A stretch of 64,000 nucleotides of DNA, taken from positions 8,948-72,947 of the forward strand of contig CAZVUC010000050.1 in NCBI GenBank assembly GCA_964630405.1, given 5' to 3'. The notes below the pieces were generated by a model that worked only from the letters and a program-made list of their open reading frames with translations, was not told the origin of the DNA and searched no databases. Numbering within the stretch: the stretch's first letter is position 1; the number at the start of each line of letters is the position of its first letter. Positions 2,153 through 63,770 of this stretch are shown piece after piece. The translations under genes and the position numbers were made by a program. The DNA is from an uncultured Syntrophobacterales bacterium (GTDB taxonomy: Bacteria; Desulfobacterota; Binatia; UBA9968; JAJDTQ01).

Positions 2153-3469
2153 TTATTGGCGGGCCGCTTCGGGCGTTGCCGGGTGCCGCGGCCTGCGTAT
2201 CGTAAGCGTCAGCGCGGACGAGATCAGCAGCATGGTCATGAACAGGAAGAGGGAGATCCTGTAGGACCCGGTGTAGTCGTACACGAAACCGAAGAACGGC
2301 GGTCCGCAGACGCCGCACAACAGCACGACCTGGAGGGCGGCGCCCCGAACGGTGCCGAGGGAGACCCGGCCGAAATAGTTCGCCCACATGACCTCTTCCA
2401 GCACCTGGGCGCCGCCGAGCCCCAGGCCGTAGAAGAAGAACCCGAGGTAGATGGTCGACAGGTCCTGCGCGTTCGCCGCCACGTACAGCCCGGCGGCTTC
2501 CACCAGGAACAGGAACGAGATGACCTTGCGGACGCTGACGCGCTCGCCGACGAAGCCCCACAACAGCCCCGAGGTCGCTTGCGTCCCGGCGATGACGGTC
2601 ATGGTCAGGGCGGCCGGAAACCCGCCGAACCCAAGGTCCGAAACGTAGGAGACCACGTGGAGGTTGAGGCCGGTGATGCCGATGTCCACCATGCCGAATG
2701 CCAGGATGATCAGCCAGAAGGTGGACGTGCGCCGCACTTCCTTCCGGGTCCAGCGGACATCGGGATCCGGTTGGCCCCCGGTCCCCGCCGTCCGGCCTTG
2801 CCCGTCGACCGTGCCGTCCATGGGCTCGAGGGCGGCGTCGCCGTCCGGATGGAGCCCCATGTCTTCCGGGCTCCGCCGCATGAAGACGGCCACCGGGATG
2901 ACCGCCAGCACCACCACCAGCACGCCGAACAGGGTCCACACCTGGCGCCATGCGATGAACGTCAGCAGCCAGCCCACCACCGCGGAGATGGCCACCTTGG
3001 CGACGCCGTGCCCGAGGTGCGAGAGGGCCAGCGCCCGCCCCCGCATCCGGACGAACCACCGGGCCACGGTGACGTTCACCACGAAGTAGCAAACCAGCGC
3101 ATGGCCCACGGCCATCAGGGTCATGCGCACGGACGCGAACTGCCAGAAGGAGTACACCCAGCCCAGCAACAGGAACCCGACGGCCGAAAGGATCGCGCCC
3201 GTGACCATCATGCCGCGTGGGCCGTACTGGTCCAGCTTGGCCCCCACCCAGGGAGCCATGAGGGCGTACAGGAGATGCTCACCGGACCGAAGCAGCGAGA
3301 AGATGCCCCTGGAAACGCCGAGATCGGCGGTAACGGGCTTCAGAAAGACGCTGAGGGTGCTGGAGAGGAAGAAGGCGCAGGAGATGTTGGCCAGAAAGGC
3401 GGCGCCGACGATGTACCAGCCGTAGAAGATTCCCGGGCTTCCGGAACGGTGGGTGGAATCAGGGGTCAC
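2153..3469 (-). CDS. MFS transporter, paralog 2 of 3.
   Basis: 438 aa. Same FYGWYIVG...FLSSTLSVFLKP architecture. Lies 18 nt upstream of paralog 1. Confidence 0.85.
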   Translation of the reverse strand: MTPDSTHRSGSPGIFYGWYIVGAAFLANISCAFFLSSTLSVFLKPVTADLGVSRGIFSLLRSGEHLLYALMAPWVGAKLDQYGPRGMMVTGAILSAVGFLLLGWVYSFWQFASVRMTLMAVGHALVCYFVVNVTVARWFVRMRGRALALSHLGHGVAKVAISAVVGWLLTFIAWRQVWTLFGVLVVVLAVIPVAVFMRRSPEDMGLHPDGDAALEPMDGTVDGQGRTAGTGGQPDPDVRWTRKEVRRTSTFWLIILAFGMVDIGITGLNLHVVSYVSDLGFGGFPAALTMTVIAGTQATSGLLWGFVGERVSVRKVISFLFLVEAAGLYVAANAQDLSTIYLGFFFYGLGLGGAQVLEEVMWANYFGRVSLGTVRGAALQVVLLCGVCGPPFFGFVYDYTGSYRISLFLFMTMLLISSALTLTIRRPRHPATPEAARQ

Positions 3470-3644
3470 GGCGGTCCCGGGCGTCGAAGACGGGCAGTCG
3501 GTTCATACTTCTCTCCTCCGGCAGCGGGTGCGGTGCGTGCGGGCTCGGTGCGTTCAGGAAGACTACTTAACTAGGCAATCGCTCGGTCCGAGTCAATCGA
3601 GTGTCCGGTGTCCCGTCCGGTCAATGAATCGACCGGACAGGACA

Positions 3645-4877
3645 CTAGTCCGGAGCCGGCCACAGCCGCCGGTCGAACCGGCGCATCCAGTCGAGACCGG
3701 TGACCCACACCGCCAGCACCGAGACCAGCAGCAGCGAGTTGGCCACGGTGAACGACACGTAGTAGCTGCCGGTGAGATCGTGCAGCGCGCCTCCCAGCCA
3801 GGCGCCCAGGCCGCCGCCGACGCCCACGCTCATGACCGAGAAACCGAAGATGGTCCCGAACCCCTTGCCGGCGAAGATGTCGGCGGTGATGGCCGAGAGG
3901 ATGACGGCGCGGGAGCCGAAGGCGATGCCGAAGCCGCCGACGTAGACGTAGAGCAGCCAAGGCTGCGAGGTGTCCGCTGCCAGGGTGAGGGCCAGGACGC
4001 CGACGGCCGCGCAGGCGATGTTGAGGGTGTAGGCCGCGGTCTTGGTGAAGGCGTCGGCGATGTAGCCGAAGGCCACGCGTCCGCCGGCGCTGACGAACGC
4101 CATGACGCCGAAGACCCCGGCGGCCCAGATGTGGCTGTAACCGATGTCCACCACGTGGGCGACCTGATGAGTGACGATCAGCATGGTGCCCACCGAGCCC
4201 AGCATCCGGGAGATGAACAGGCTCCAGAACTGTATGCTCCTTAGCGCCAGCGAAGCCGACCACTCGCCGGCAGCGGCGGCGGCCGCCGTCCCTCCCGCGC
4301 TTTGCGGGCTGGGCCGGTAGGTGCTCCACACCAGGGGTATGATCAGGATGAGGATCGCCGCCGCCAGCGCCTGGAACACCCGCGGCCAGCCCCACAGGGA
4401 GATCAGCCCCTGACTGAGGGGCGAGAGGATCAGGGTGCCCACCCCCACCGCTCCGTAGACGATGCCCAGGACGAGACCCCGGCGGGAGGGGAACCACTCC
4501 GACACCACCACCACGTGGGGAATCACGCCGCCGGCCGCGAACCCCAGCGACACCACGACCCCGAAATAGAAATAGAGCTCCCACGCCGTGCTGACCCGGC
4601 TGCACAGGAGCAGGCCGGCGGCCAGGACCACGCTGCCCGCCATCACGACCCGCCGCGGCCCCAGGCGGTCGGTGAGGCGTCCGATGAAGGGCGAAGCGAG
4701 CGCGTCGGTGACCAGGTTTGCCGTCTGAAGCCCGGCGGTGACCGCGCGGCTCCAGTGAAAAGTGTCGAGGAGCGCCACGAAGAAGACGCCGAAGGAGGTG
4801 TGGAGGCCGCGAATGAAGCCGAACGTGAACGAAGCGGCTCCGGCGATGACCCACGGATGGTTGGTTTGGCGCGTCAT
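3645..4877 (-). CDS. MFS transporter of a distinct subfamily from the three paralogs.
   Basis: 410 aa polytopic membrane protein with MFS-like topology and loop motifs (GRLTDRLGPRRV). Confidence 0.8.
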   Translation of the reverse strand: MTRQTNHPWVIAGAASFTFGFIRGLHTSFGVFFVALLDTFHWSRAVTAGLQTANLVTDALASPFIGRLTDRLGPRRVVMAGSVVLAAGLLLCSRVSTAWELYFYFGVVVSLGFAAGGVIPHVVVVSEWFPSRRGLVLGIVYGAVGVGTLILSPLSQGLISLWGWPRVFQALAAAILILIIPLVWSTYRPSPQSAGGTAAAAAAGEWSASLALRSIQFWSLFISRMLGSVGTMLIVTHQVAHVVDIGYSHIWAAGVFGVMAFVSAGGRVAFGYIADAFTKTAAYTLNIACAAVGVLALTLAADTSQPWLLYVYVGGFGIAFGSRAVILSAITADIFAGKGFGTIFGFSVMSVGVGGGLGAWLGGALHDLTGSYYVSFTVANSLLLVSVLAVWVTGLDWMRRFDRRLWPAPD

Positions 4878-4892
4878 GGCGGTTTCGCGGCC

Positions 4893-6239
4893 TCAGTCGA
4901 TCCCGGCCCGACCCGCCGGTTCGGACTTGCGTGGGGGGCGCACGGCCAGGACCAGGAACGCCGACAGCAGCAGGGCGCCGATGAACACGTTGAACGACAG
5001 GAAATAGCTGCCGGTGTAGTCGTGGAAGAAGCCGAAGAAGGGCGGTCCGACGGTCGTGAATATACGGGTGATCATGATACCCAGATTGCGCACCCGGCCC
5101 AGGGAGACGCGGCCGAAGTAGTTGGCCCACAGCAGCTCGCGAATCACCAGGATCCCGCCCAGGCCGAACCCGTAGATGATGAAACCCAGGTAGACCGAGA
5201 CCGGCCCCAGGGGCGCAAGGGCCAGCCCCAGGCCGCACACCTGCAAGAGGAACTGGGCGGCGGCTGCCTTGCGCACGTCGATATGCTCGCCCACAACTCC
5301 CCAAATGAGGTTTCCGGCCATCTGGGTCAGGGACATCGCCCCCATTACGGTGGCGGCGATCTCGGGCGAATAGCCGATGTCCGTAATGTAGGGGTAGATG
5401 TGCAGGTTCAACCCGATGATCCCGAACGTGACCGTGCCGTAGGTGACCACCAGCAGCCAGAACGTGCCGGTCCGGACGGCCTCCCCTCGCGTCCATGCGA
5501 TATCGACCGCGGGCGCCTGGTGGGCTTCCTGTTTCTGAGTCTTGCCCGGGGAAGGCTGATGGGGCGCCAGCGCGCCGTCCGGTTGAAGGCCCATGTCCTC
5601 CGGGCTTCGCCGGACCACCAGGAACGCCGGCAGCACGACCATGGCCAGGGTCAACAGGCCGAACACCATCCAGGTGTTGCGCCATCCCACCAACGCGAAG
5701 AGTCCCACGGCGAGCAGGGGCATGGTCGCCTTGGCGAGGCCGTTTCCGGTGTTGGCGATGGAGATGGCACGGCCCCGCTTGCGGACGAACCAGCGCGAGA
5801 TCATGACGTTGACGACCATGTAGCTCATCAGCGTGTCGCCCACGGTGACGGGGAGCCATCGTATGACCATGAACTGCCAGAACTCCTGGATCTGGCTGAG
5901 CAGGATGAAACCGGCCCCTCCCACCAGCGCTCCGGTCACGATGAGCCATCGGGCTCCGTAACGGTCGATGAGGGGGCCCACCAGGGCCGCGATCACCGAG
6001 GAGAACATGACCTCGCCGCTGCGGATGAACGAGAAGACTCCCCGGGAAATGCCGAACTCGGCCGTGAGGGGTTTCAGAAAGATGCTGAGGGTGCTGGATA
6101 GCGCGAAGGACGAGCCGAGGTAGCAGATGAAGCCGACGCCGACGATGTACCAGCCGTAGAAGATCTTGCGGGTCACTATATCGAGTTGGTTTACTGGTGC
6201 GTCGCGGGAATGGCAACCGGCGGGACACGAACCTGGCAA
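4893..6239 (-). CDS. MFS transporter, paralog 3 of 3. The start is uncertain and may be the internal GTG giving VTRKIFYGWY.
   Basis: IFYGWYIVGVGF...LSSTLSIFLKPLTAEFGISRG is highly similar to paralogs 1 and 2. Lies 15 nt upstream of the 3645-4877 gene. Confidence 0.8.
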   Translation of the reverse strand: MPGSCPAGCHSRDAPVNQLDIVTRKIFYGWYIVGVGFICYLGSSFALSSTLSIFLKPLTAEFGISRGVFSFIRSGEVMFSSVIAALVGPLIDRYGARWLIVTGALVGGAGFILLSQIQEFWQFMVIRWLPVTVGDTLMSYMVVNVMISRWFVRKRGRAISIANTGNGLAKATMPLLAVGLFALVGWRNTWMVFGLLTLAMVVLPAFLVVRRSPEDMGLQPDGALAPHQPSPGKTQKQEAHQAPAVDIAWTRGEAVRTGTFWLLVVTYGTVTFGIIGLNLHIYPYITDIGYSPEIAATVMGAMSLTQMAGNLIWGVVGEHIDVRKAAAAQFLLQVCGLGLALAPLGPVSVYLGFIIYGFGLGGILVIRELLWANYFGRVSLGRVRNLGIMITRIFTTVGPPFFGFFHDYTGSYFLSFNVFIGALLLSAFLVLAVRPPRKSEPAGRAGID

Positions 6240-6280
6240 ATCATATTCATATCAGAAAAGAGAATATCTATTCGTTAAAA

Positions 6281-14586: not shown

Positions 14587-15963
14587 TTGCTTTCGGTCCC
14601 GCGGGCGCCCGAAACCCCGATCTTGTCTCCCCGCCCGGCTTCGTGCCACACTGCCACCGTGCCGCCATCCTCGTCCACACGCCCCGAGCCCGCTGCCCGC
14701 GACTCCGGGGAGACCCGGTCCCTCAAGGATGTACAACAGTCCAGGGTTTCCTTCGGCGCGCTCCGGCAACCGCACTTCCGCGCCTACTTCTCCTACACCA
14801 TGCTGGCCATGATGGCCGACAACATCGAGCACGTGATCAGCTACTGGGTGATCTACGACCTGTTCAAGTGGGAAGAGCTGCAGGGGTTCGCGGTCATCAG
14901 CCACTGGTCGCCGTTCCTGCTGCTGTCCTGGTACGTCGGCCTCCTGTCGGACCGCTTCGACTGCCGCCGGGTGATCCAGTGGGCGATGATCCTCTATTTC
15001 GTTCTCACCATCGCCTGGGCCTGGTTCATCATCACCGGGACGCTCACGGTCTGGCACGCCTGTGCGTTGCTGGTGGTGCACGGCGTCGCCGGCGTCCTGT
15101 GGAGCCCCGGAGGCCAGCTCATCCTTCACGACATGGTGGGTCCCGAGCACCTGCAGAGCGCTGTCCGCCTCAGCGCCACCAGCCGGCAACTGGGGATCCT
15201 GGCGGGGCCGGCCCTGGGCGGATTCATGATGCGCGGGCTGGGCGCGGCGTGGGGTCTGGTGATAAACGCGCTGTTCTATATTCCACTGACCCTGTGGCTG
15301 TCCCGGGTACCCTATACCGGCCACCGCGCCCAGGAGGTGCAGGCGCGCCGGGTCACCTGGGCGCGGGCCCTGGAAGCGCTCCGGGAGGCCCGGAGCAACC
15401 ACGTCATCGTCTCGATGGTTTGCCTGGTGGGACTCTCCTCGCTGGTGGTCGGCAATGCCTTCCAGGCCCAGATGCCGGGGTTCGCCATCAAACTCGGGGT
15501 GGGGGAGGCTGGCTACAGCGTGCTGCTCGCCGCCAACGGCGCCGGCGCGTTCGTGAGCGGCGTGCTGCTGGAGAGCCGGGGGTTTCTCCAGGCCCGGGCT
15601 CGCACCGCCATCGTCCTGGCGCTCCTCTGGTGCGCCGCGTTGGGCATGTTCGCGTTCACGTCCCACTACTATCTGGCGGTGGCGCTCCTGTTCGCCGCCG
15701 GCTTCCTCAACCTGGCCTACCTGACCATGTCGCAAACCCTGGTGCAGCTTGTCTCGCCGGCCCACCTGCGCGGCCAGTTGATCGGCCTGTTCATCATGTC
15801 CGGCCTCGGGCTCCGCACCTTCAGCGGCGTCACCGTGGGGATCGCGGGCGGCGTCATCGGCATCCAGTGGTCCCTGGGGTTGAGCTGTGCGTTTCTGCTG
15901 GCGGTCATGCTGGTGCTGCTCGCGGTCACCGCCAGGTCTCGGGGCGACGAGGCCGGCCCCTGA
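14587..15963 (+). CDS. MFS transporter. The N-terminal 60 aa are Pro/Ser-rich, so the start is uncertain.
   Basis: About 12 transmembrane segments. Typical MFS motifs from FRAYFSYTMLAMMADNIEHV onward. Confidence 0.75.
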   Translation: MLSVPRAPETPILSPRPASCHTATVPPSSSTRPEPAARDSGETRSLKDVQQSRVSFGALRQPHFRAYFSYTMLAMMADNIEHVISYWVIYDLFKWEELQGFAVISHWSPFLLLSWYVGLLSDRFDCRRVIQWAMILYFVLTIAWAWFIITGTLTVWHACALLVVHGVAGVLWSPGGQLILHDMVGPEHLQSAVRLSATSRQLGILAGPALGGFMMRGLGAAWGLVINALFYIPLTLWLSRVPYTGHRAQEVQARRVTWARALEALREARSNHVIVSMVCLVGLSSLVVGNAFQAQMPGFAIKLGVGEAGYSVLLAANGAGAFVSGVLLESRGFLQARARTAIVLALLWCAALGMFAFTSHYYLAVALLFAAGFLNLAYLTMSQTLVQLVSPAHLRGQLIGLFIMSGLGLRTFSGVTVGIAGGVIGIQWSLGLSCAFLLAVMLVLLAVTARSRGDEAGP

Positions 15964-16073
15964 GGCCGGCCCGAACTGCCGCGTCTTGCCTGTCGTGTCC
16001 GCGTTTCGTAGTGTGTAGTCAGTGCTCCTCGTCACTCTTCCTCTGTCAACCTTCATGATGCTCCGATGAACAA

Positions 16074-16086
16074 GACACGACACTAG
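16074..16086. repeat. Solo copy of the element-A terminal motif GACACGACACTAG.
   Basis: 13/13 identity with the right-arm terminus of element A (48615-48627). It is immediately followed by CCGGACAG, which resembles the element-B terminus. Confidence 0.35.
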
Positions 16087-16177
16087 CCGGACAGCAAGTT
16101 ACGGTCTCGGGACGCGAGAGGGCAAATGCCTGCGCCGTTCGGGTTTCGGGGCGGACGATTCGCGAGGTGTTTCCGGG

Positions 16178-16651
16178 ATGGAAGCAGTTCCCAAAAAGAC
16201 TCTTTATCTTGCCAATCCCTACGGCTTTTCGTTGCAACAGCGAGAGGGCCCGCTGGCGGCGCTGACCGCGGCGTTGGAAGCGCTGGGGGTGGAGGTGTGG
16301 GAGCCGTTCGCGCGCAACAACCAGGTGGATAGGGCCGAGGCCGGCTGGGCGTATCGCATTGGACAGGCCGACCTGCGCGACGTCCGCGAAGCGGACGGCC
16401 TGTTCGCCGTGGTCAACGGATGCCCTCCGGACGAGGGTGTGATGGTCGAGCTGGGCATGGCCATAGCCTGGCGGAAACCGGTCTTTCTCTTCCGGGACGA
16501 CTTTCGCCGCTGCACCGACAGCGAGGCGTATCCCTTGAACCTGATGGTGTTCAGCGGCCTTCCGGAGGTCGGTTGGAAAGCCTGCTGGTATACCTCGGTG
16601 GCGGAGATCGCGGACCCCGAGAAGGCGCTGGCGCGTTGGCTGAACAGTTGA
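16178..16651 (+). CDS. Nucleoside 2-deoxyribosyltransferase-like (DNPH1/Rcl-like) protein.
   Basis: Family hallmarks: N-terminal LYLANPYGF and the conserved acidic DEGVMVELGMAIAWRKPVF segment. Confidence 0.65.
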   Translation: MEAVPKKTLYLANPYGFSLQQREGPLAALTAALEALGVEVWEPFARNNQVDRAEAGWAYRIGQADLRDVREADGLFAVVNGCPPDEGVMVELGMAIAWRKPVFLFRDDFRRCTDSEAYPLNLMVFSGLPEVGWKACWYTSVAEIADPEKALARWLNS

Positions 16652-23656: not shown

Positions 23657-23747
23657 GGTACCTCCGGTTTCATCGAATTCGCCTGCAAACCTCCAGGTCC
23701 TCCGGCCCGGTCACGGGTCCGCTCATCCTGTCCGGCCGGCCATGCTC

Positions 23748-25163
23748 CTAGATGTGGTAGTAGTGGAAGAACTCCGCCGGGACGGGATGGAGGAACACAT
23801 CCTTCGACTCCTGCTCCTTGAACGCGATGTAGTGGTCGATGACATCCTGCGTGAAGACACCGCCCTCCAGCAGGAAGTCGTGGTCCGCACCGAGGGCCGC
23901 CACCGCTTCCTCCATGGAGGTGGGAACGGAAGGAATACCGGCCGCTTCCTCGGGGCTGAGCTCGTATATGTCCGTGTCGGTGGGGTCGCCGGGGTCGATG
24001 CGGTTGCGTATGCCGTCAAGGCCCGCCATCAACATGGCGGAAAAGGCCAGGTACGTGTTGGCGGAAGGGTCCGGAGGGCGGAACTCGATGCGTTTGCTGG
24101 CAGCCGAGGTCTCGTAGGTGGGGATGCGGACCGCGGCCGAACGGTTGCGCGCCGAGTAGGCCAGGTAGACCGGCGCCTCGAAGCCGGGCACCAGACGCTT
24201 GTAGGAGTTGGTCGTGGGGGCGCAAAAGGCCAGCAATGACGGGCTGTGCTTGAGCAGTCCGCCGATGTAGTGCCGCGCCAACTCCGACAACTCGGCATAG
24301 CCGCCGGCGTCGTAGAAGAGCGGCGTATCGCCGAGCCACAGCGACTGATGCACGTGCATGCCGCTGCCGTTGTCGCCGAACAGGGGCTTGGGCATGAAGG
24401 TCGCGGTCTTGCCGTGGGCCTTGGCCACGTTGCGGACGATGTGCTTGTACCATTGGGTCTCGTCGGCTTTCCGGCGCAGGGTCTGGAAGCGGGTCGCGAT
24501 CTCGCCCTGGCCGCCCGTCGCCACCTCGTGGTGATGGACCTCGAACTCGAGGCCGACCTGCTCCATCTTCTCCGCCATCTCCCAGCGCAGGTCCGCGAGC
24601 TGGTCGAACGGGGGAATGGGCGAATAGCCCTGCTTGGGCGGAATCTTGTAGCCCAGGTTGTGGTCGTCCTCCTCCCGGGCCGAGTTCCAGTCGGCCTCGT
24701 CGGAGTCGACGATGTGGAACGACGAGTTGAGCTTCATGCCGAAGCGCACGTTCTCGAATACGAAGAACTCGAGCTCCGGACCGAAGAACGCCTTATCGGC
24801 GATGCCGGAGGCGTTGAGGTGAGCTTCCGCCTTGGTGGCGACGTAGCGCGGGTCGCGGGTGTAGCGATCACCGTTCACCGGGTCCACGACGTCGCAGATG
24901 AGCTTGAGGGAGGGTTCCGACTCCACCGGATCGATGCGGGCGGTGTCCAGATCCGGAACCAGCAGCATGTCGGACTGGTCGATGGACTGGAAGCCGCGCA
25001 GGCTGGAGCCGTCAAAGCCCTGACCGCGTTCGACGAGGCTTTCCTTCACTCTGGAAGGAGGTATCGAAAAGTGTTGCCAACGGCCGATGAGGTCGGTGAC
25101 CAAGAGGTCGACACGCCGTACGTTGTTGTCCGAAATCAGTTTCTGAACGTCCTCAAGTGTCAT
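23748..25163 (-). CDS. glnA: Glutamine synthetase type I.
   Basis: 471 aa. GS-I colinear, with the adenylylation-site region and NSYKRLVPGFEAP motifs. Confidence 0.95.
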   Translation of the reverse strand: MTLEDVQKLISDNNVRRVDLLVTDLIGRWQHFSIPPSRVKESLVERGQGFDGSSLRGFQSIDQSDMLLVPDLDTARIDPVESEPSLKLICDVVDPVNGDRYTRDPRYVATKAEAHLNASGIADKAFFGPELEFFVFENVRFGMKLNSSFHIVDSDEADWNSAREEDDHNLGYKIPPKQGYSPIPPFDQLADLRWEMAEKMEQVGLEFEVHHHEVATGGQGEIATRFQTLRRKADETQWYKHIVRNVAKAHGKTATFMPKPLFGDNGSGMHVHQSLWLGDTPLFYDAGGYAELSELARHYIGGLLKHSPSLLAFCAPTTNSYKRLVPGFEAPVYLAYSARNRSAAVRIPTYETSAASKRIEFRPPDPSANTYLAFSAMLMAGLDGIRNRIDPGDPTDTDIYELSPEEAAGIPSVPTSMEEAVAALGADHDFLLEGGVFTQDVIDHYIAFKEQESKDVFLHPVPAEFFHYYHI

Positions 25164-27096: not shown

Positions 27097-28359
27097 ATGG
27101 GATGGACCCGAAGAGCCTTGATCAAGGGCGGCGGCTTGGCGTTGATCTCGCTTTCGCTGGGGGGCACGCCGCCGTTCCTGCGCCGCGCCGCCGTCGCCGC
27201 CGGCGATCCGTTGCCTTACGGACGCCGGAAAGTGCTGGTGGCGCTCTTTCAGCGAGGCGCCATGGACGGGTTGATGGCGGTGACGCCCATCCACGACCCG
27301 GCGCTGGCCGCCGCGCGCCCCAACCTGTTCATGAGCTTGAGGCGGGGGGACACGGCTCTCGACGGACGTTTCGCCATGCATCCCGCGTTCGCGCCGCTGT
27401 TGCCGCTGTACCGGGAGGGACGCCTGGCGGTGGTGCACGGGGTGGGTTCGGTCCACAAGACGCGCTCGCATTTCGATGCGCAGGACTACATGGAGATGGG
27501 CACGCCGGGCGTGAAGAGCACGCCGTCGGGGTGGCTCAACCGAGCCGCCGGGCTGCTCGGGCGGCCGGCGTCTTCGGCCCGGATGGTGGCGCTCACCGAC
27601 AAGCTGCCGCGGTCGTTCTACGGCGACCGCCCCGCCGTCGCCGTGGACGACCTGCAGTCCTTCGGCATCCGGGTCCCGGACGACCCGGAGGCTTCGGAGA
27701 GGTTTCGGACGGGCTTTGCGTCCATGTACGCCGGAAGCGCGAAACGTCTCGCCCGGCGGGTGGGCAGGGAAAGCTTCGAGGCGGTCGAGGTGTTGAGGAA
27801 GACCGACTGGAGCGGCTACCGCCCCGGAGACGGAGCCGTGTACCCCGATTCGGCGCTGGGCCGGCGCCTGAGACAGGTGGCCATGCTCATCAAGGCGGAG
27901 GTGGGGCTCGAAGTGGCCTTCACCGAGACCGGCGGTTGGGATACGCACGTGAGGCAGGGCACCACGGCCGGTTCCTTCGCGGACCGGGCCGCTGACCTGT
28001 CACGGGCGCTGGCGGCCTTCTGGACCGATCTCGGCCCGTATCAGGACGACGCGGTGCTCCTCACCATGACCGAGTTCGGGCGCACGGTGGAACAGAACGG
28101 TTCGCTGGGCACCGACCACGGCCGCGGGTCCTGTCTGTTCGTCCTCGGCAACGAAGTGGAAGGCGGCAGGGTGCACGGCACGGTGCCGGACCGGCTGGTG
28201 AGGGATGCGCTCGAAGACGGCCGCGATCTGCCCGTGACCACCGATTTCCGTTCCGTGTTCGCCGAGGTGGCCGGCAGACATCTGGGCATCCCGCGTTCCG
28301 ACGACGGCGTGGTGTTCCCTGGTTGGGAGGGCCGGCGGCGCAGGTTGATGAAAAACTAG
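27097..28359 (+). CDS. DUF1501 domain protein with a Tat-type signal (RRALIKGG).
   Basis: Start at the internal ATG 27097, with GGAAGG Shine-Dalgarno. 420 aa. Canonical DUF1800/DUF1501 pair. Confidence 0.8.
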   Translation: MGWTRRALIKGGGLALISLSLGGTPPFLRRAAVAAGDPLPYGRRKVLVALFQRGAMDGLMAVTPIHDPALAAARPNLFMSLRRGDTALDGRFAMHPAFAPLLPLYREGRLAVVHGVGSVHKTRSHFDAQDYMEMGTPGVKSTPSGWLNRAAGLLGRPASSARMVALTDKLPRSFYGDRPAVAVDDLQSFGIRVPDDPEASERFRTGFASMYAGSAKRLARRVGRESFEAVEVLRKTDWSGYRPGDGAVYPDSALGRRLRQVAMLIKAEVGLEVAFTETGGWDTHVRQGTTAGSFADRAADLSRALAAFWTDLGPYQDDAVLLTMTEFGRTVEQNGSLGTDHGRGSCLFVLGNEVEGGRVHGTVPDRLVRDALEDGRDLPVTTDFRSVFAEVAGRHLGIPRSDDGVVFPGWEGRRRRLMKN

Positions 28360-28372
28360 GACAGGCTCCTAG
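28359..28372. repeat. Solo copy of the element-B terminal motif GGACAGGCTCCTAG. It spans the stop codons of two convergent genes.
   Basis: 14/14 identity with the right terminus of element B (62474-62487). The palindromic CTAG supplies TAG stops on both strands. Confidence 0.35.
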
Positions 28373-39426: not shown

Positions 39427-39470
39427 CGCCGGCTCGGACAGACTCCCGGGAGCTTTATCGTTCGATACGG

Positions 39471-39500
39471 GCAGGGGCGGGTTTCAAACCCCGCCCCTGC
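39471..39500. repeat. REP-like GC-rich hairpin GCAGGGGCGGG-TTTCAAAC-CCCGCCCCTGC.
   Basis: 11-bp perfect stem. Same core as the motifs at 6898 and 42892. Sits just after the amidohydrolase stop. No U-tract follows. Confidence 0.5.
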
Positions 39501-41858: not shown

Positions 41859-42890
41859 ATGTCCAAGGCGCGGGAGGGGATCATGTCCTCGAGATTCCTG
41901 AGTTCGCTTGCGGCGGCAACCGTTGCGGCGGTGACGGTCGTCTCCGTCGCCCTCGGATCCGAAGCCAGGGCGCCGGTTCGGGTGGGCTTGACGGGCTTCG
42001 GGGTAGGCACCGTCGTCACCTGGGTCGCCGACGACACGGACCTGTTCGCCAAGTACGGCATCGACGTCGAGGCCGTCTACATCGAGGGAGCCGCGGGCGG
42101 CGGCGTGCAGTCGCTGCTCGGGATCGACATCCTGGTGTCGTCCCGGGACGTGCTGCCCCCCCTGGAGGCCGTGAGCAACGGCGCCGACCTGGTTTTCTTC
42201 GGCGGACACGGGAGCGCGGAGAACTATCGTTTCGGGGTGGCTTCGTACGTCGATCACCTGGCGCAGCTCAAGGGCAAGAAGGTGGGGGTGTCGGGCTTGG
42301 GCAGGAAGTCCGACCTCATCGCGCGGGTGGCTTTGCGGCGGGCCGGGCTCGATCCGGTGGAGGACGTGGAGATGGTTCCCATCGGCTACTCGCCCCAGCG
42401 AGCCGCGGCCATCTTTCGCAACGTCGTCCAGGGGGCGCCCCTTGTCCCTCAGGTGGCGGCGCAGGCGCAGCGGGCGGGCATCAAGGTGCTCGACGTCGGG
42501 GAGGTCCATCTCGTCACGGACCTGCTGGTCACCACCCGGTCTTTCGCCGAACGGAACCCCAGTGCGCTCCGGCGTTTCCTGATGGCCTATCTCAACGGCG
42601 TCCAACACTTTCTGACCGATCGCGCGGACAGCATGCGCATCATGAAGAAATACGGGACCCTGGCGGAGGGGACCTCCCTCTCAGGCGCCTACACGTTCCT
42701 GGCCAACCAGCTGGAACCGCTGCCGGTGCCGCGCGCCGAGGGGGTGCAGGCGCTCATCGATGCGGTCTCGGTCACGGACTCGCGCGCCCGGAAGCTCATG
42801 CCGCACCAGCTCCTGGAGCTGGAGGCCTTGAAGCGGCTTCAGCAGGCCGGTTTCGTCAAGGGACTGTACTCCGAGAAGATCGAGCTGTAA
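41859..42890 (+). CDS. ABC-type substrate-binding protein of the NitT/TauT (NMT1-like) family. Orphan: no permease or ATPase gene is adjacent.
   Basis: Signal peptide. NMT1-like fold. Confidence 0.75.
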   Translation: MSKAREGIMSSRFLSSLAAATVAAVTVVSVALGSEARAPVRVGLTGFGVGTVVTWVADDTDLFAKYGIDVEAVYIEGAAGGGVQSLLGIDILVSSRDVLPPLEAVSNGADLVFFGGHGSAENYRFGVASYVDHLAQLKGKKVGVSGLGRKSDLIARVALRRAGLDPVEDVEMVPIGYSPQRAAAIFRNVVQGAPLVPQVAAQAQRAGIKVLDVGEVHLVTDLLVTTRSFAERNPSALRRFLMAYLNGVQHFLTDRADSMRIMKKYGTLAEGTSLSGAYTFLANQLEPLPVPRAEGVQALIDAVSVTDSRARKLMPHQLLELEALKRLQQAGFVKGLYSEKIEL

Positions 42891-42891
42891 G

Positions 42892-42915
42892 GGCGGTTTC
42901 AGACCCGCCCCTGCA
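42892..42915. repeat. REP-like hairpin GGGCGG-TTTCAGAC-CCGCCCCTGC directly after the stop codon.
   Basis: Shares CCCGCCCCTGC and GGCGGTTTCA with the 39471 copy. Confidence 0.45.
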
Positions 42916-47756: not shown

Positions 47757-48467
47757 ATGATGACGATCGCATTGGACGCGGCGGCGGGCGCCCTCCCCGC
47801 GAGCCGCGGCGTGTCACGCTTCCCTGGTTGGATTGCGGCGGTCTTCTGCGCCGCCCTGTTGCTGCCGTTGCCGGGTCCCCGCGCGCAGGAAGCCGCGAAC
47901 ATCGTCCGGGAAGTGCAGCGTCGCTACGACGCCACGCGGGACTACAGCGCCGACTTCCGGCAGACCACCGAGTACCGCACCCTCAACCGGCGCATCGAAG
48001 GCAAGGGCCGGGTCTACTTCAGCAAACCGGCGAAGATGCTGTGGCGCTACGAGGACGCTGACGGACAGTTCGTCTTGTCCGACGGGCGCGCCCTCTACTT
48101 CTATCAGCCGGCCGAACGGCAGGTGATCAAGACCGCCCTCGGGTCGGTGTTCCGCTCGGACCTTCCGCTTTCCTTCCTGCTGGGCGTCGGCGATCTCGAC
48201 CGGGATTTCCGGGCAGAGTTGACGGCCTCCACTCCCGACGCCCACGTGCTGAAGCTCTTTCCCCGAAAAGCCAATACGGGCGTGACCGAGATCCAGCTCT
48301 CCGTGGACCCGGACAGCCACGACATCCGACAGGTCCTCATCGAGGATGCCGCGGGCAACGGTTGGACCTTCCGCTTCGACAACGTCCGCCACGGGGCAGG
48401 GCTGGATCCGGCGTTGTTCGAGCTGAAAGCGCCGCAAGGTGTCGATATCGTTGAGTTTGGGTCTTAG
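47757..48467 (+). CDS. lolA: Outer-membrane lipoprotein carrier protein LolA.
   Basis: Signal peptide. LolA fold motifs. Conserved ftsK-lolA synteny. Confidence 0.8.
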   Translation: MMTIALDAAAGALPASRGVSRFPGWIAAVFCAALLLPLPGPRAQEAANIVREVQRRYDATRDYSADFRQTTEYRTLNRRIEGKGRVYFSKPAKMLWRYEDADGQFVLSDGRALYFYQPAERQVIKTALGSVFRSDLPLSFLLGVGDLDRDFRAELTASTPDAHVLKLFPRKANTGVTEIQLSVDPDSHDIRQVLIEDAAGNGWTFRFDNVRHGAGLDPALFELKAPQGVDIVEFGS

Positions 48468-48627
48468 TGTCGTGTCCCACACAATGCTTTACCGATCTGC
48501 TTGTCTTTCTTGTCGTCGGCTGCGTTGCTCTTCCTCGCGTGGTGCCCGCCACTGCTCGTCATCGCGCCTTGCCGACAACAAGAAATCCTGCGCATCCCGG
48601 TAAAGCATTGTGTGGGACACGACACTA
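48465..48627 (-). ncRNA. Nested-hairpin repeat element, copy A. Candidate structured RNA on the minus strand.
   Basis: Perfect 30-bp outer inverted repeat (48465-48494 with 48598-48627). It encloses a ~100-nt core with an inner 15-bp stem (48506-48520 with 48571-85). The single inner-stem mismatch is C/A on the plus strand, which is G-U on the minus strand. The core is about 90% identical to copy B. The element starts at the TAG stop of lolA. Confidence 0.65.
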
Positions 48628-48731
48628 GGGCCGCGTCTCCTTCGGCAAGCCCCCACGGTGGTGGCCGCGTCTCTCGTATTGACTCCGTCTCGAAATAGTG
48701 GTGAATTGTGTCTCTTCCAGGAGACACGACC

Positions 48732-49157
48732 ATGAGGAAAGACGTTCTGAAGAAATTCCGGGAGACCCTCCTCGGCATGAAGGGTCAACTGCTGGAGGAT
48801 ATCCCGGACCGGCTCAAGCACGAGGTGGAGAGCTCCAAGGACGAGGGACGCGACACCTACGATTTGGCCAGCGACGAGCGGGATCGTGAGATCAACATGA
48901 TACTGAACGATCGCGAACGGGCGAAGCTGATGGCCATCGAGGATGCGCTGCTCCGGCTCGGCGAGGGTTCCTACGGCATCTGCGACGAGTGCGGGGAAGA
49001 TATCGGCGTCGGCCGGCTCAAGGTGATGCCGTTCACGCGGTTGTGCGTGCGCTGCCAGGAGGAGCTGGAGAAGGAATCCCGCATGACGAAGAACTTCGAC
49101 GACGATCGAACCTTCCGCCGGCTCACGACGACGGACACGGAAGAGGAAAGCTATTAA
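48732..49157 (+). CDS. DksA/TraR-family C4 zinc-finger protein.
   Basis: CxxC-x17-CxxC (CDECGEDIG...CVRCQ). Shine-Dalgarno AGGAGA before the ATG at 48732. Confidence 0.75.
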   Translation: MRKDVLKKFRETLLGMKGQLLEDIPDRLKHEVESSKDEGRDTYDLASDERDREINMILNDRERAKLMAIEDALLRLGEGSYGICDECGEDIGVGRLKVMPFTRLCVRCQEELEKESRMTKNFDDDRTFRRLTTTDTEEESY

Positions 49158-50584: not shown

Positions 50585-51616
50585 ATGATCCGGCACCATC
50601 CGATCCCATGGCGTCACTTCATGCGCGCCGCGCTGTTGCTGGCGCTCGCCGTCGGCGTCGCGGCCGGCCGCGCCCGGGCCAACCTGGAAGCTTTGCCCGC
50701 CGCCGAGCTGGAGAAGCAGGCCTACGCCAAGATCGTGGAGGCCCGTGGCAGCGCACGGGCGGAGCGTTACCCCGACGCGCTGACTCGGTTGGATGATGCA
50801 GTGACGCTGGCGGAGCAACTGGACGACAAGCTGCCGCTGGCGTTGGCGCTTCACAACAAGGGTGAAGTGGAGCTGCTCCGGGGCCGGCCGCTGGATGCCC
50901 TGAAAGCCTACTACAGGGTCTTGGGGGTCTACAGGCGGCTGGGGCACCAAGCCGGCGCCGCGCTGGTTCAGAAGCGGATCGGAATGCTGACGCGGCTGGT
51001 CAAGAAGCCCGAGAAGCCGGCCGCCGCCCCGCCTCAAGAGGCGCCCGCGGCGAAAGCCCCGGACCGCCTTTCGCTCGTCGACCAGGCGGTGGAGCGGATC
51101 CGCGCGCGGATCAGGTCCGCCGGTCAGAAAGCGCCCGAGAAGCCGGCGCTGGTCGAAACACGCCGGACGGTGGAACCGCCGGTACCCGTCGAGGCACGAG
51201 GAACCGGGGAGCCGCCGCCGCCCGTCCCGACAACCCCGCCCGAGGAGCCGCCGCAGCCGTCGGTCCAGGTGGCGCGAGCCGAGCCCCGATCCGGGGCGGA
51301 CAATCCACGGGAGTGGGCCTACGTGGAATCCCTCAAGAGGAAGATCAGCGCCCGGTCGCGGTATCCCGCCTACGCCAGGCGAACGGGTCAGCAGGGGACT
51401 GTGGCCGTTGTCGTCGCGGTGCGCGAGAACGGCGAGCTCGCCGGCGTCGAACTGTCCGAGTCGTCCGGCTTCATCGTGCTGGATGTGGAGGCCCTCCGCA
51501 ACGTCCGGGAGTCCGCCCCTTTCGGTCCCGTGCCCACCCGCGCGGTTCCGGGCCCCCTGACCGTCCGCATGACCGTCAGCTACACGCTGCCGGCCGCGTC
51601 CGGCCCTGCGCCCTAG
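50585..51616 (+). CDS. TonB C-terminal-domain protein with a Pro-rich linker and a TPR-like N-terminal region.
   Basis: Signal or transmembrane N-terminus. PEKPAAAPP and PPPPVPTTPPEEPP linker. C-terminus YPAYARRTGQQGTVAVVVAV...GPLTVRMTVSY. Confidence 0.65.
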   Translation: MIRHHPIPWRHFMRAALLLALAVGVAAGRARANLEALPAAELEKQAYAKIVEARGSARAERYPDALTRLDDAVTLAEQLDDKLPLALALHNKGEVELLRGRPLDALKAYYRVLGVYRRLGHQAGAALVQKRIGMLTRLVKKPEKPAAAPPQEAPAAKAPDRLSLVDQAVERIRARIRSAGQKAPEKPALVETRRTVEPPVPVEARGTGEPPPPVPTTPPEEPPQPSVQVARAEPRSGADNPREWAYVESLKRKISARSRYPAYARRTGQQGTVAVVVAVRENGELAGVELSESSGFIVLDVEALRNVRESAPFGPVPTRAVPGPLTVRMTVSYTLPAASGPAP

Positions 51617-61151: not shown

Positions 61152-62326
61152 CACGTTCGGAGTTGGTCCGTCGCCGGCTGCAGTCGGGCCGTCCATCGCG
61201 CCGCCTCGCGGCCGCGGCTCTCGCCCTGGCCCTCGGCTGGTCCGGGATTGCTGCCGCGGACACGGTGGAACAGACCGAGCGACATGCGGTGCGCGTGCGC
61301 ATCCTGACCCGCGGGCTCGAACGCCCGTGGTCGCTGGCCTTCCTTCCGGACGGACGGATGCTGGTCACCGAGCGGGCCGGCCGGCTGCGCTACGTCGCAG
61401 CCGACGGCACGCTGGATCCGACTCCCATCACCGGGCTCCCCGAAGCGGTGGCGGAGAGGCGGCAGGGCGGCCTGCACGACGTCGTGTTGCACCCCCGGTT
61501 CTCGCGGAACCGCCTCGTCTATCTCGCCTATGCCGGCAAGGGCGCGGGGGGCTACGGCACCGAGCTCGCCCGGGGGCGGCTTGACGGCCACCGCCTCACC
61601 GACGTGCAGGTCCTGTTCCGGGCCTTGCCCAAGTCGTGGGGCGGCCGCCACTTCGGCGGCCGGGTGGTGTTCGACGGCAAGGGGCACGTGTTCCTGACCC
61701 TGGGGGACCGGGGCAACCGTCCGAGCGCGCAGGACCTGGGCGACCACGCGGGTTCGATGATCCGCCTCACCGAGGACGGCGGCGTGCCGAAGGACAACCC
61801 CTACCTGTCCGTGGTCGGCGCGAGGCCGGAGATCTACACCCTCGGCAACCGCAACGTGCAGGGCGCGGCCATCCATCCGCGGACCGGCGAGCTCTGGACC
61901 CACGAGCACGGGCCGCAGGGCGGCGACGAGATCAACATCATCCGGGCCGGCGTCAACTACGGGTGGCCGGTGATCACCTACGGCAGGAACTACGGGATCG
62001 GCACGCGCATCGGCGAGGGGACCCACGGGGAAGGCATGGCCCAGCCCCTGCACCAGTGGACGCCGTCCATCGCGCCCTCGGGCATGGCGTTCTATGACGG
62101 CGACAAGTTCCCCCGCTGGCGCGGCAACCTGCTGGTAGGCGCGCTCGCGTTCCGCCTGCTCGCGCGGATCGAGCTTGACGGAGAGCGGGTCGTCCGCGAA
62201 GAGCGGATTCTGAAGGGGGTCATCGGCCGCATCCGCGATGTCCGGGTGGGCCCCGACGGATACGTCTACCTTCTGAGCGACGAGCAACCGGGCGTGCTCG
62301 CGCGCCTCGAGCCCGCCGGCGGCTAG
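61148..62326 (+). CDS. PQQ-dependent soluble sugar (aldose) dehydrogenase, YliI/Asd-like.
   Basis: Signal peptide. Beta-propeller motifs (PWSLAFLPDG...TLGDRG...NYGWP). Confidence 0.85.
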   Translation: MTRSELVRRRLQSGRPSRRLAAAALALALGWSGIAAADTVEQTERHAVRVRILTRGLERPWSLAFLPDGRMLVTERAGRLRYVAADGTLDPTPITGLPEAVAERRQGGLHDVVLHPRFSRNRLVYLAYAGKGAGGYGTELARGRLDGHRLTDVQVLFRALPKSWGGRHFGGRVVFDGKGHVFLTLGDRGNRPSAQDLGDHAGSMIRLTEDGGVPKDNPYLSVVGARPEIYTLGNRNVQGAAIHPRTGELWTHEHGPQGGDEINIIRAGVNYGWPVITYGRNYGIGTRIGEGTHGEGMAQPLHQWTPSIAPSGMAFYDGDKFPRWRGNLLVGALAFRLLARIELDGERVVREERILKGVIGRIRDVRVGPDGYVYLLSDEQPGVLARLEPAGG

Positions 62327-62487
62327 GAGCCTGTCCGGGTAATACGTCGGCGAATCTGCTGGTCCTTCTTGCCGTCGGCCGCGTTGCTCCTCCTCGCGTG
62401 GGGGTGGCCACTGCTCGTCGTCGCGCCTTGCCGACAACAAGAAGTCCTGCGCATCTTCACCAACGTATTACCCGGACAGGCTCCTAG
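62323..62487 (-). ncRNA. Nested-hairpin repeat element, copy B. Candidate structured RNA on the minus strand.
   Basis: 31-bp outer inverted repeat (62323-62353 with 62457-62487). Its two mismatches are both C/A on the plus strand, which is G-U on the minus strand. Inner 15-bp stem 62365-79 with 62430-44 has two C/A mismatches on the plus strand. Relative to copy A it carries a compensatory T:A to C:G change at the stem base. The CTAG ends supply the TAG stops of both flanking convergent genes. Confidence 0.65.
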
Positions 62488-63770
62488 TCCGCACCCCCCT
62501 CGGCTCTCAGCGAATCCAGCGCCTCCTCCACGAGTTTGCGCCGCAACGCCTTCTCCTCGTCGGGCGGCAGGCTGGCGTCTCCGGCCACGTGGATGATGCC
62601 GGTTCCCAACACGACACGGTTGGAGCCCACCATCTTGGCGATGGGCAGGGCGGAGGTCAGTTGCACGACCGGGACGCCGGCCTTTTCGAGCTCGGTGGTG
62701 ATCGCAGCGCCGCTGCGAGTGCTGGTGCCTCACGTGGAGGTGAGGATGACGGCGTCGACCCCCTCGCGCTTGACTTTCTCGGCCATCTCCCGGCCCAGCC
62801 GGCGGGTGTTGGAGAGGGGGTTGGACAGGCCGGACGTGGACAGGAACTCTCCGTGTATCTTGCCCACGGCGCCCTCTTTCTCCAGTTGCCTGAGGGCGTC
62901 GAGGGGGACGAGGCGGTCGGGGTCGGCCTGCACGAAGCGCGGGTCGTAGCCGCCGTGGGAGATCTCGTAGTCATCGCCCGCGAGGTCGTCGTCGCCGGAG
63001 ATGTCGTAGGCGCCCCAGCGCGTGGCGGCCATGCCTTCGATATTGTCCGGATTGCCCTTGGGCACCAAGCCTCCGTCGGTGATGAGCATCACCGTGGCCT
63101 TGGAGATGTCGTCCACGCCCCTGGGCTTGGCCACCGGCTGGAACGAGGTGACGGGCATCTCGGTGTCGAACGGCTGGTCCTGGGCCTTGGCCAGGACCAT
63201 GTCCACCAGGCGCTCGGCCGAGGACTTGTCGACGAACCGGTCCCGTATCAGCCCCCGGGTCAGGTATCCCTCTTCTTCGGGCAGGCCGACGGCCTCTCCC
63301 GCCGCCAGCTTCCGGGCCAGTCCGGCCATGCGCTCCACCACCTCCTTCATCTTCGCCGCGTTCTTTCCGGAGTCGATGATGTAGAGGCCTTCCCGGTAGA
63401 GGTCCACGCCCGGGTTCTCCTCGTGCATGGCGGTGACGGCCGGAATGCCGAGCTCCGTCTGCACCGCGCTGCACAAGGCGCCCGCGGCCATGCCGTAGCG
63501 GCCGGCGTCGAAGCACGGGCCGGCCACGAACAGGTCCGCCTCCACGCCCCGGACATGTTCGAGGACCGCGGCTGTCAGCTCCTCCTGATGCTCGACAGCG
63601 TAGTTGTCGCCGCAGACCAGGGCCTTGACGACGGTGGCCCCGTCGCCGAGGCTCCGTTCCAGCAGGCGGCCGGGGCCGACGGCGCCCTCGACCTCCCGCA
63701 GCGGGCTCCCGGCCTGTTCCTCGCCGCCGATTCCTCCGAAAAACTGGTTGAGGTAGTGGACGATCCTCAT
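62484..63770 (-). CDS. GrdB-family protein (glycine/sarcosine/betaine reductase selenoprotein B-like). About 428 aa if the in-frame TGA at 62730-62732 is read as selenocysteine.
   Basis: N-terminus MRIVHYLNQFFGGIGGEE matches the GrdB N-terminus. Shine-Dalgarno AAGGAGG 8 nt upstream. The 346-aa ORF ends at a TGA. The next 81 codons continue in frame with no stop, and they include the track's 62484..62666 ORF. Context reads ILTST-U-GTSTRSGA, which I compare to UxxCxxC from recalled GrdB literature. Confidence 0.6.

Follow-up and report, generated by a model that had tools for sequence, protein, structure and literature searches.

Several well-described families of small repeats are close to the elements considered here. 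MITEs of the IS630 family, such as RUP of Streptococcus pneumoniae, and the eukaryotic Stowaway elements, which belong to the Tc1/mariner group, are 100-250 bp long, non-coding and multi-copy; their TIRs match those of an IS630 or mariner transposon, and TA is duplicated at the insertion site. The Correia elements of Neisseria (CREE/NEMIS) are MITEs of ~100-155 bp, also with TA duplication and often located at gene ends, and they form long hairpins when transcribed; we know of no documented CTAG preference for them. For Tn10 and Tn5, the process called 'nearly precise excision' is a deletion, aided by a hairpin, whose endpoints are short direct repeats within the inverted ends; what stays behind at the former insertion site is a small stereotyped remnant. 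According to PMC2170065 and the Tenzen & Ohtsubo papers cited there, IS630 prefers a TA within 5'-CTAG-3'.

The window (the whole stretch of 64,000 nucleotides analysed here) carries two intact elements of this kind:

48464-48628, plus strand: element A, an intact MITE; 159-bp body at 48467-48625, flanked by TA at 48465-66 and 48626-27.
62323-62487, plus strand: element B, an intact MITE; 159-bp body at 62326-62484, flanked by TA at 62324-25 and 62485-86.

Junctions included, A and B are 165 bp each. They have a conserved core in common and differ in their inverted ends of ~30 bp, and after the TA they start with G(T/G)(G/A). Their junctions contribute to stop codons of flanking reading frames. 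In the left junction of A, the LolA stop TAG (48465-67) is made of the TA and the first base of the element, while the two junction CTAGs of B hold the stops of a plus-strand GSDH (glucose/sorbosone dehydrogenase) gene, at the left junction, and of a small minus-strand ORF. The genes neighbouring the elements, and those neighbouring the scar described below, are supported by Pfam.

In a scan that used one genome per species, the core 19-mer was found in 89 loci, ~65-75 of them on chromosomes of Candidatus Binatia or similarly labelled MAGs, with several copies per genome. Forty-one uninterrupted copies of the family align over the full length, and 35 of 56 copies are 165 bp long with their junctions. 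The A/B family is thus small, non-coding and multi-copy, as MITEs are. A plasmid BLAST with element A gave no match, and the literature contained no link of Binatia to MITEs and showed the terminus sequence only in unrelated primer lists. A and B are new family members, in a new host (Candidatus Binatia), of a well-known kind of element. A coding reading of the two elements was considered and rejected. Minus-strand ORFs (48464-48778, 104 codons; 62323-62733, 136 codons) traverse all of A and B and terminate at the left-junction stop codon, but the start codon varies (ATG, GTG, CTG or TTG), the substitutions have no codon pattern, many copies are interrupted by REPs, and an insertion lengthens the site by 161 bp, a number not divisible by 3. 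These ORFs look like high-GC artefacts, and they could be miscalled as genes.

The target of the family was deduced from the junctions and from a comparison of sites. CTAG is ~12-fold depleted in the window (15 observed vs 198 expected); the sites that survive mostly belong to stop codons or to element junctions, with junctions of elements or remnants making up 7 of the 15. As for other tetranucleotides, TTAA is ~7-fold under-represented in the window (7 vs 50 expected), and GATC and TCGA are ~2-fold over-represented. The elements sit between stop codons because CTAG is depleted and survives mainly as C+TAG at gene ends, and roughly one in two copies provides a neighbouring gene with its stop codon, whichever way the element is oriented. 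Three core-carrying loci are syntenic with segments of the window at 80-89% identity, so that sites could be compared directly. One such site is empty in the window:

51613-51616: empty target CTAG, at the stop codon of a TonB-like gene, in the context GCC-CTAG-GCGT.

With the same flanks, locus L043 (OY761465.1) has a full element between two CTAGs. Over the 41 aligned copies the junctions read xTAG...CTAy, and their outermost bases vary in 13 of 82 cases, compared with 3 of 82 for the inner G/C (Fisher p=0.016) and 7 of 164 for the TA (p=0.003). The left outer base is C in 34 of the 41 copies and the right outer base is G in 35, in line with a preferred CTAG. These observations fit duplication of TA in targets of the form NTAN, among which CTAG is strongly preferred, and element ends G...C. 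A 4-bp duplication of CTAG is excluded only statistically, since CTAG is a palindrome. Both the empty/filled pair and the base variation show the insertion into TA, with TA duplication, that is expected of an IS630/Tc1-mariner MITE.

The sequence-only reading had noted that the terminal motifs of A and B occur again elsewhere in the window, with 13/13 bases of the A right terminus at 16074-16086 and 14/14 bases of the B right terminus at 28359-28372, and both exact matches are present. The A motif, GACACGACACTAG, is found exactly at the right end of A (48616-48628) and at 16074-16086, and with one mismatch at the left end of A (48464-48476, minus strand) and at 3636-3648; the B motif, GGACAGGCTCCTAG, is found exactly at both ends of B (62323-62336 on the minus strand and 62474-62487) and at 28359-28372. 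That such matches are improbable by chance was borne out: a base-composition model (64 kb, both strands) predicts 0.0014 and 0.0009 exact hits, and given the 15 CTAGs only, the expectation is ~1e-4 for the A motif and 7e-5 for the B motif. Neither are these simply frequent oligomers, as 641 kb of Binatia DNA contain 116 terminus motifs, 109 of which adjoin an element core, and we therefore take them to be element ends. The further suggestion that the termini are independently mobile or recombining modules was not supported. In the window and the Binatia loci no terminus is multi-copy by itself, and all B-type ends are accompanied by B-type core variants. This co-divergence of termini and cores indicates tree-like descent and gives no evidence of module shuffling. 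The finding of solo motifs is real but largely ordinary.

The clearer of the two sites is that of the B motif:

28356-28372, plus strand: 17-bp scar CTAG-GACAGGCTC-CTAG; the orthologous loci L091-L095 have a single CTAG.

The scar is composed of TA (28357-58), the 11-nt B-type terminus GGACAGGCTCC (28359-28369) and TA (28370-71), so that the flanking direct repeat which the earlier reading had proposed to look for is present on both sides; at 16074 a TA stands on the right only. The motif had also been described as bridging two convergent stop codons, and these indeed belong to two real genes, a plus-strand DUF1501 gene with its stop TAG at 28357-28359 and a minus-strand transglutaminase-like gene with its stop CTA at 28369-28371. 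Homologues of the window's transglutaminase-like protein are 90-92% identical. In L091-L095 (OX638375.1 and four independent metagenome contigs) the convergent genes overlap in a single CTAG, and the window has the flanks of these loci with 13 extra bases, GACAGGCTCCTAG, that is, TA plus the 11-nt B terminus. Judged from this comparison of orthologues, the interpretation of 28359 as a putative B-type scar, left by insertion at CTAG and subsequent near-total loss of the element, is well supported. For this site, then, the earlier idea that solo motifs are remnants of core loss was upheld by orthologues with a bare CTAG.

The order of events could be reversed, with the 28359 motif as a pre-insertion docking site recognised by B-type elements rather than a remnant. 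The two CTAG targets inside the motif would agree with such a role, but the orthologous position in five loci is a single CTAG, and the empty site at 51613 is a bare CTAG without terminus-like sequence; we regard a docking site as extremely unlikely. None of the orthologous 28359 sites compared has a full B element, and the orthologue in L023 has a REP in place of the scar. OZ244070.1, which by the transglutaminase protein (92%) is the nearest relative, lacks the DUF1800-DUF1501 genes (~3856-4150), and its deletion junction falls exactly on the CTAG orthologous to window positions 28369-28372 (...GCGCAACA-CTAG-TCTGCG...).

As to how the remnant arose, a B-type element would have entered the CTAG common to the two convergent stops, and a later internal deletion would have spared its last 11 nt and both TAs. 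The terminal 11-mer has GGA at its start and TCC at its end. A deletion running from the GGA of the left junction to the GGA with which the right 11-mer begins on its inner side would always produce the identical 17-mer, and in end variants with CTAG at positions 12-15 the direct repeat grows to CTAGGA. Replication slippage across the hairpin or interrupted gap repair may have been the route of this deletion. The canonical excision footprint of Tc1/mariner/IS630 elements (TA, 2-3 nt of each end, TA, which here would be CTAGGCCTAG or CTAGGATCCTAG) was not observed; the scar keeps 11 nt of one end, vs 2 nt of each end in the canonical footprint.

Remnants of other sizes are found in the window as well:

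3598-3648, plus strand: collapsed element with both termini and a 7-nt loop but no core, bounded by CGAG and CTAG.
23727-23751, plus strand: B-type remnant in degenerate form, CCTGTCCGG-CC-GGCCATGCTCC-TAG, at the glnA stop (minus strand).

The CTAG at the right edge of the collapsed element (3645-48) holds the stop codon of a minus-strand MFS gene, and the orthologue in L044 consists of half an element and a REP. This element lies between the second and the third of four tandem MFS transporter genes, all on the minus strand (836-2152, 2153-3502, 3645-4892 and 4893-6251). Further remnants are present in L022 (4504-4530) and, as collapsed elements of 54-56 bp, in L132 and L223. The varied sizes indicate that deletion in the palindrome is common and that 28359 is its minimal recurrent outcome. 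At 39433-39446, CTCGGACAGACTCC matches the B-type right end at 13/14 (cf. L087); it starts 7 nt past a TAG stop (39424-26) and has no TAG of its own, and either further decay of an element or chance may account for it. Solo or partial termini also adjoin full elements with a common junction CTAG (L026 at 1537, L052 at ~380, L087 at ~3261, L022 at ~5560, L023 at ~1700), which is consistent with repeated insertion into CTAGs made by the elements themselves, followed by decay.

Metagenomes were scanned for the scar with an 8-variant pattern, consisting of eight CTAGGACAGGNNNCTAG variants. Among 121 matches, the exact 17-mer accounted for 73 and each of the other variants for 3-20. The exact 17-mer occurs in 70 unique contexts, of which 9 are MITE ends; in 54 of the 70 no left end lies within 2.5 kb upstream, on contigs with 32-73% GC. 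An ORF of at least 100 codons ends in one TAG in 35 of these 54 bodyless contexts, and 10 have one ending in each. In the two cases inspected the neighbours were housekeeping genes (RNase Y-like and phosphohexomutase-like). That one exact 17-bp scar recurs so broadly is the sole mildly surprising result. In many unrelated metagenomes, B-type ends (GGAGCCTGTCC...) also head MITEs of ~160 bp whose cores are quite different, always in the form C-TA-[...]-TA-G.

This recurrence might be taken to mean that the 11-bp terminus with its TA flanks is a minimal mobile unit, cut and pasted by IS630-type transposases, in which case the solo motifs would be insertions. The unit is flanked by TA on either side, it begins and ends with the same 3 nt as the full element, and the exact 17-mer lies between genes at CTAG-type sites in at least 54 unrelated contexts. 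However, the 17-mer occurs once in the window and is absent from 641 kb of other Binatia DNA, and there is therefore no sign of its amplification. Remnants of many other sizes occur, as expected under deletion, and ISY100 requires 24-bp inverted repeats, its only cis requirement (PMC2170065). A minimal mobile unit is, in our judgement, very improbable. We also find it quite improbable that the 17-mer is a specific product of this IS630 clade, either an 11-bp 'nano-element' still movable by the transposase or a programmed excision product that restores convergent stops, with the core and stem exapted in parallel as a gene-end structured RNA. Internal deletion is retained as the likely explanation of 28359.

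The metagenome scan, with the scar pattern CTAGGACAGGMYMCTAG, also provided a link to a transposase. One of the matching loci, L172, carries a 1144-bp IS flanked by TA within CTAG, with inverted ends that are identical at 24 of 28 positions and a single 363-aa ORF. Against the NCBIfam IS630 transposase model NF033545 (cut-off 100) the ORF product scores 247.9 bits, and it has Pfam DDE_3 and HTH domains. The ends of this IS, GTCTCCTGTCTTAGATAATTCTTTAC and GTGTCCTGTCCTAGATAATTATTTAC, have 22/28 identity to the commonest Binatia TIR (GTGTCCTGTCCCACGTAATTCTTTAC) and 19/28 to the TIR of A, but only 12/28 to that of B. TIRs of the family are thus homologous to those of an autonomous IS with an IS630-family (DDE_3) transposase. 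From these end sequences the IS630 link is direct for the main-type and A-type ends, and for B it runs only via the shared TA/CTAG behaviour and the TGTCC motif.

Because the elements insert at TA within CTAG, have IS630-like ends and match the published behaviour of IS630 and ISY100, we assign A and B to the IS630-type MITEs, and consider it likely that this assignment is right and that 28359 is the remnant of a B-type insertion after internal deletion. By homology, an IS630-family transposase from elsewhere would bind the ~30-bp TIRs and excise the element, which would then be pasted into the TA of a CTAG with duplication of the TA. Insertions would land at gene ends, where every junction would restore a TAG stop. 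A cognate transposase was not found in the window, in which all ORFs tested are housekeeping genes, or in ~640 kb of Binatia loci (8-kb loci), and these loci contain no long-range terminus pair. A search for transposase homologues gave more than 8000 close soil homologues among the matches listed and was uninformative on Binatia. Five loci with a second terminus 0.7-1.2 kb away (L108, L187, L161, L119 and L134) were considered as full-length B-type ISs and rejected as ordinary genes with chance matches.

The elements are also notable as hairpins. In the 31-bp outer stem, each of the pairs 15-31 occurs as 3-5 Watson-Crick pair types, in contrast to a nearly invariant core. Of the 41 copies, 36 fold more stably as the minus strand, since the C.A mismatches of the plus strand become G.U there. 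Compensatory pair types in the stem, G.U pairs on the minus strand and a core more conserved than the stem are what one would expect if A and B were structured RNA genes or ssDNA hairpin sites (attC/REP-like), with the termini as the base of the stem and the solo motifs as half-sites. Yet the only match in the window at the Rfam gathering score is a tRNA, and the best Rfam match to element A has an E-value of 0.14 and falls far short of the gathering score; neither A nor B matched a curated Rfam family. The orientation relative to the stop-using gene has no clear bias (8 left, 12 right). Moreover, the empty and filled sites with TA duplication mean transposition, the stem is homologous to the ends of an IS630-family IS, and the REPs of these genomes are a separate, shorter repeat class. 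The L027 copy (~2000-2050; element core position 2051) has, in place of its left internal-loop region, a sequence exactly complementary to the right arm (CGAGGTGCGCAGGATTTCTTGTCGTCGGC), which shows conversion between the arms of the palindrome, and conversion of this type can maintain complementarity without selection. We thus consider RNA genes or hairpin sites a decidedly unlikely identity for A and B, and keep to IS630-type MITEs. Inner repeats that vary while complementarity is kept are nevertheless unusual for repeats bound by a transposase and are not fully explained, and the hairpin may have a role as RNA or as single-stranded DNA. The varying stem with a conserved core raises a small question on the co-evolution of MITE ends.

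Genuine REP-like units (GTAGGGGCG...CGCCCCTAC) occur in these Binatia genomes, even nested in the MITE cores. Copies in L009, L017, L018, L030, L031, L037, L041, L071, L075, L083 and other loci carry such nested palindromes at one fixed core position, after ...GCCAC (e.g. GGGGCGACCGCCGGTCGCCCCTACA and CGGGCGGGTTTGAAACCCGCCCCTACA; a third unit ends ...GCGAAGTCGAAGGACG). This suggests that the nested REPs are a second, site-specific mobile repeat class, perhaps RAYT-type, that targets the MITE. In the window, REP-like palindromes of the class seen in L023 lie just past gene ends at 39471-39500 (GCAGGGGCGGGTTTCAAACCCCGCCCCTGC) and 42887-42914 (GTAAGGGCGGTTTCAGACCCGCCCCTGC). A second MITE family was also encountered:

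L052 ~1880-1961, L061 ~2640-2790 and L085 ~2740-2806, also L110, L127, L132, L147 and L169: second MITE family, with GGAGCCTG(T/A)CC ends as in the B type and another core (...CGTAGCGAG...CTCGCAGTAG...).

This family is present in Binatia, and a related form was found in low-GC metagenome organisms; some copies make up tandem arrays with one common TA.

The A motif at 16074 is the more difficult case, and it has a partner on the opposite strand:

16074-16086, plus strand: 13/13 match to the A right terminus (GACACGACAC + TAG), 4 nt past the vestigial TGA of a deleted AAA_14/DUF4143 gene.
15990-16000, minus strand: inverted copy of the A terminus matching at 10/11 (CTGTCGTGTCC on the plus strand), without an adjoining TA.

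Given the inverted copy, the description of the 16074 motif as solo is not strictly correct. On one side of the site an MFS gene ends at 15963, and on the other a nucleoside 2-deoxyribosyltransferase gene starts at 16178. In L097 and L098, whose MFS proteins are 91-93% identical, the equivalent gap contains a 500-aa AAA_14/DUF4143 gene, and in L097 and L100 a Pyr_redox_2 gene follows the region. What is left of the AAA_14 gene region in the window is 40 nt from upstream of the gene (15981-16020, 92% identical to L097), which include the partner at 15990-16000, and the last 29 nt (16042-16070, 97%). With one 1-nt gap, the 13-mer aligns in register to GAATCCACGGCCCTGG in L097, GAGTCCCCGGCCCTGG in L100 and GAAACGACGCCCTG in L098, the context being ...CCACGGCCCTGG in L097 and ...ACGACGCCCTG in L098; the partner aligns to CTGCCGCGTCC (L097) and CTGTCATTCCC (L100). 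Around the 13-mer, homology is 97% upstream and ~65% downstream, through CCGGACAG. As the 13-mer is in register with the DNA of relatives, and homology on both sides speaks against any insertion, 16074 is not a clean insertion, and the idea of a core-loss remnant is unproven for this site. The earlier reading had also seen a B-like sequence immediately after the motif. CCGGACAG does adjoin it, but this is ancestral flank and not a B terminus, because the orthologues read CCGGGCAA or CCGGCGCC there.

The orthologous loci (L097-L103 and L224-L226) form a variable hotspot in which the 13-mer is not polarised. Across L097-L100, L102, L103 and L224-L226, the gap corresponding to window positions 15964-16177 is either empty or occupied, depending on the relative, by an AAA_14/DUF4143 gene (complete or truncated), an Eco57I-like restriction-modification gene or a Pyr_redox_2 operon. 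The identity of the AAA_14 remnants (92-97%), compared with ~65% in the neighbouring DNA, suggests that they may come from a recently exchanged cassette. AAA_14/DUF4143 was considered as cargo or transposase between 15990 and 16074 and was rejected, as L097, L098, L100 and L225 have no matching inverted ends or TA flanks; the interior of 15990-16086, searched against all loci, gave no related sequence. The A-type scar predicted by analogy with B (CTAGTGGGACACGACACTAG) does not match the 16074 sequence either.

Both the 16074 motif and its 15990 partner could be coincidences, produced by ordinary substitutions in decaying remains of AAA_14/DUF4143 and of the start of Pyr_redox_2; the motif could possibly have been reached from ...CGACGCCCTG... 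by stepwise point mutations. Such an origin accords with the register that both sequences keep with the homologous DNA of relatives, with the absence at 16074 of a left TA and of an element body, and with the folding of the 121-nt region around the site, which is no better than that of shuffles (z=0.24). In addition, the motif carries less information than its length suggests, being a tandem 5-mer (GACAC GACAC). On the other hand, only ~1e-3 exact hits are expected per window, and ~1e-4 given the 15 CTAGs alone; the 10/11 inverted copy is 73 nt away and in the correct orientation; CTAG is strongly avoided, with 6 of the other 14 CTAGs being element or remnant junctions; and other remnants are abundant in the window. 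If the motif were a relic, a microhomology deletion after the insertion would by chance have brought the sequence back into register. We give a relic of an A-type end roughly an even chance, regard coincidence in decaying DNA as possible though the less probable of these two, and leave to a short conversion patch an outside chance.

One MITE family explains the stop-flanked palindromic 165-bp elements, the "solo" termini and the short hairpins at gene ends. For annotation, the elements and their scars mark gene ends and supply stops, and they should be masked as repeats and not called as ORFs or RNAs. The recurrent 13-bp scar is a possible marker of past IS630-clade activity in genomes that now lack the element.

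The comparison with known systems separates A and B from several of them. REP/BIME sequences, mobilised by RAYT, are likewise intergenic palindromes at gene ends, but they are 20-40 bp long with a GTAG/CTAC head and no target duplication, whereas A and B are five times longer, have no GTAG head and have TA duplication. The sequences of the Correia elements are unrelated to A and B, and Correia elements have size classes formed by internal deletion. Compared with the nearly precise excision of Tn10/Tn5, the repeat at 28359 is only 3 nt (GGA), or 6 nt (CTAGGA), and the remnant comprises 11 nt and both TAs, presumably by a related type of deletion. IS630 (Shigella sonnei) and ISY100 (Synechocystis) are autonomous elements of ~1.1 kb, while A and B are non-autonomous, with bodies of 159 bp, and the footprint expected of IS630/ISY100 would keep 2 nt of each end, vs 11 nt of one end in the 28359 scar. 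RUP and Stowaway resemble A and B in their insertion at TA, here within CTAG, and in having repeats like those of an autonomous relative, here 22/28 identical to an IS630-family IS. Unlike RUP and Stowaway, A and B have Candidatus Binatia as their host, and they combine a core that is conserved across genomes with inner repeats that vary in a compensatory manner.
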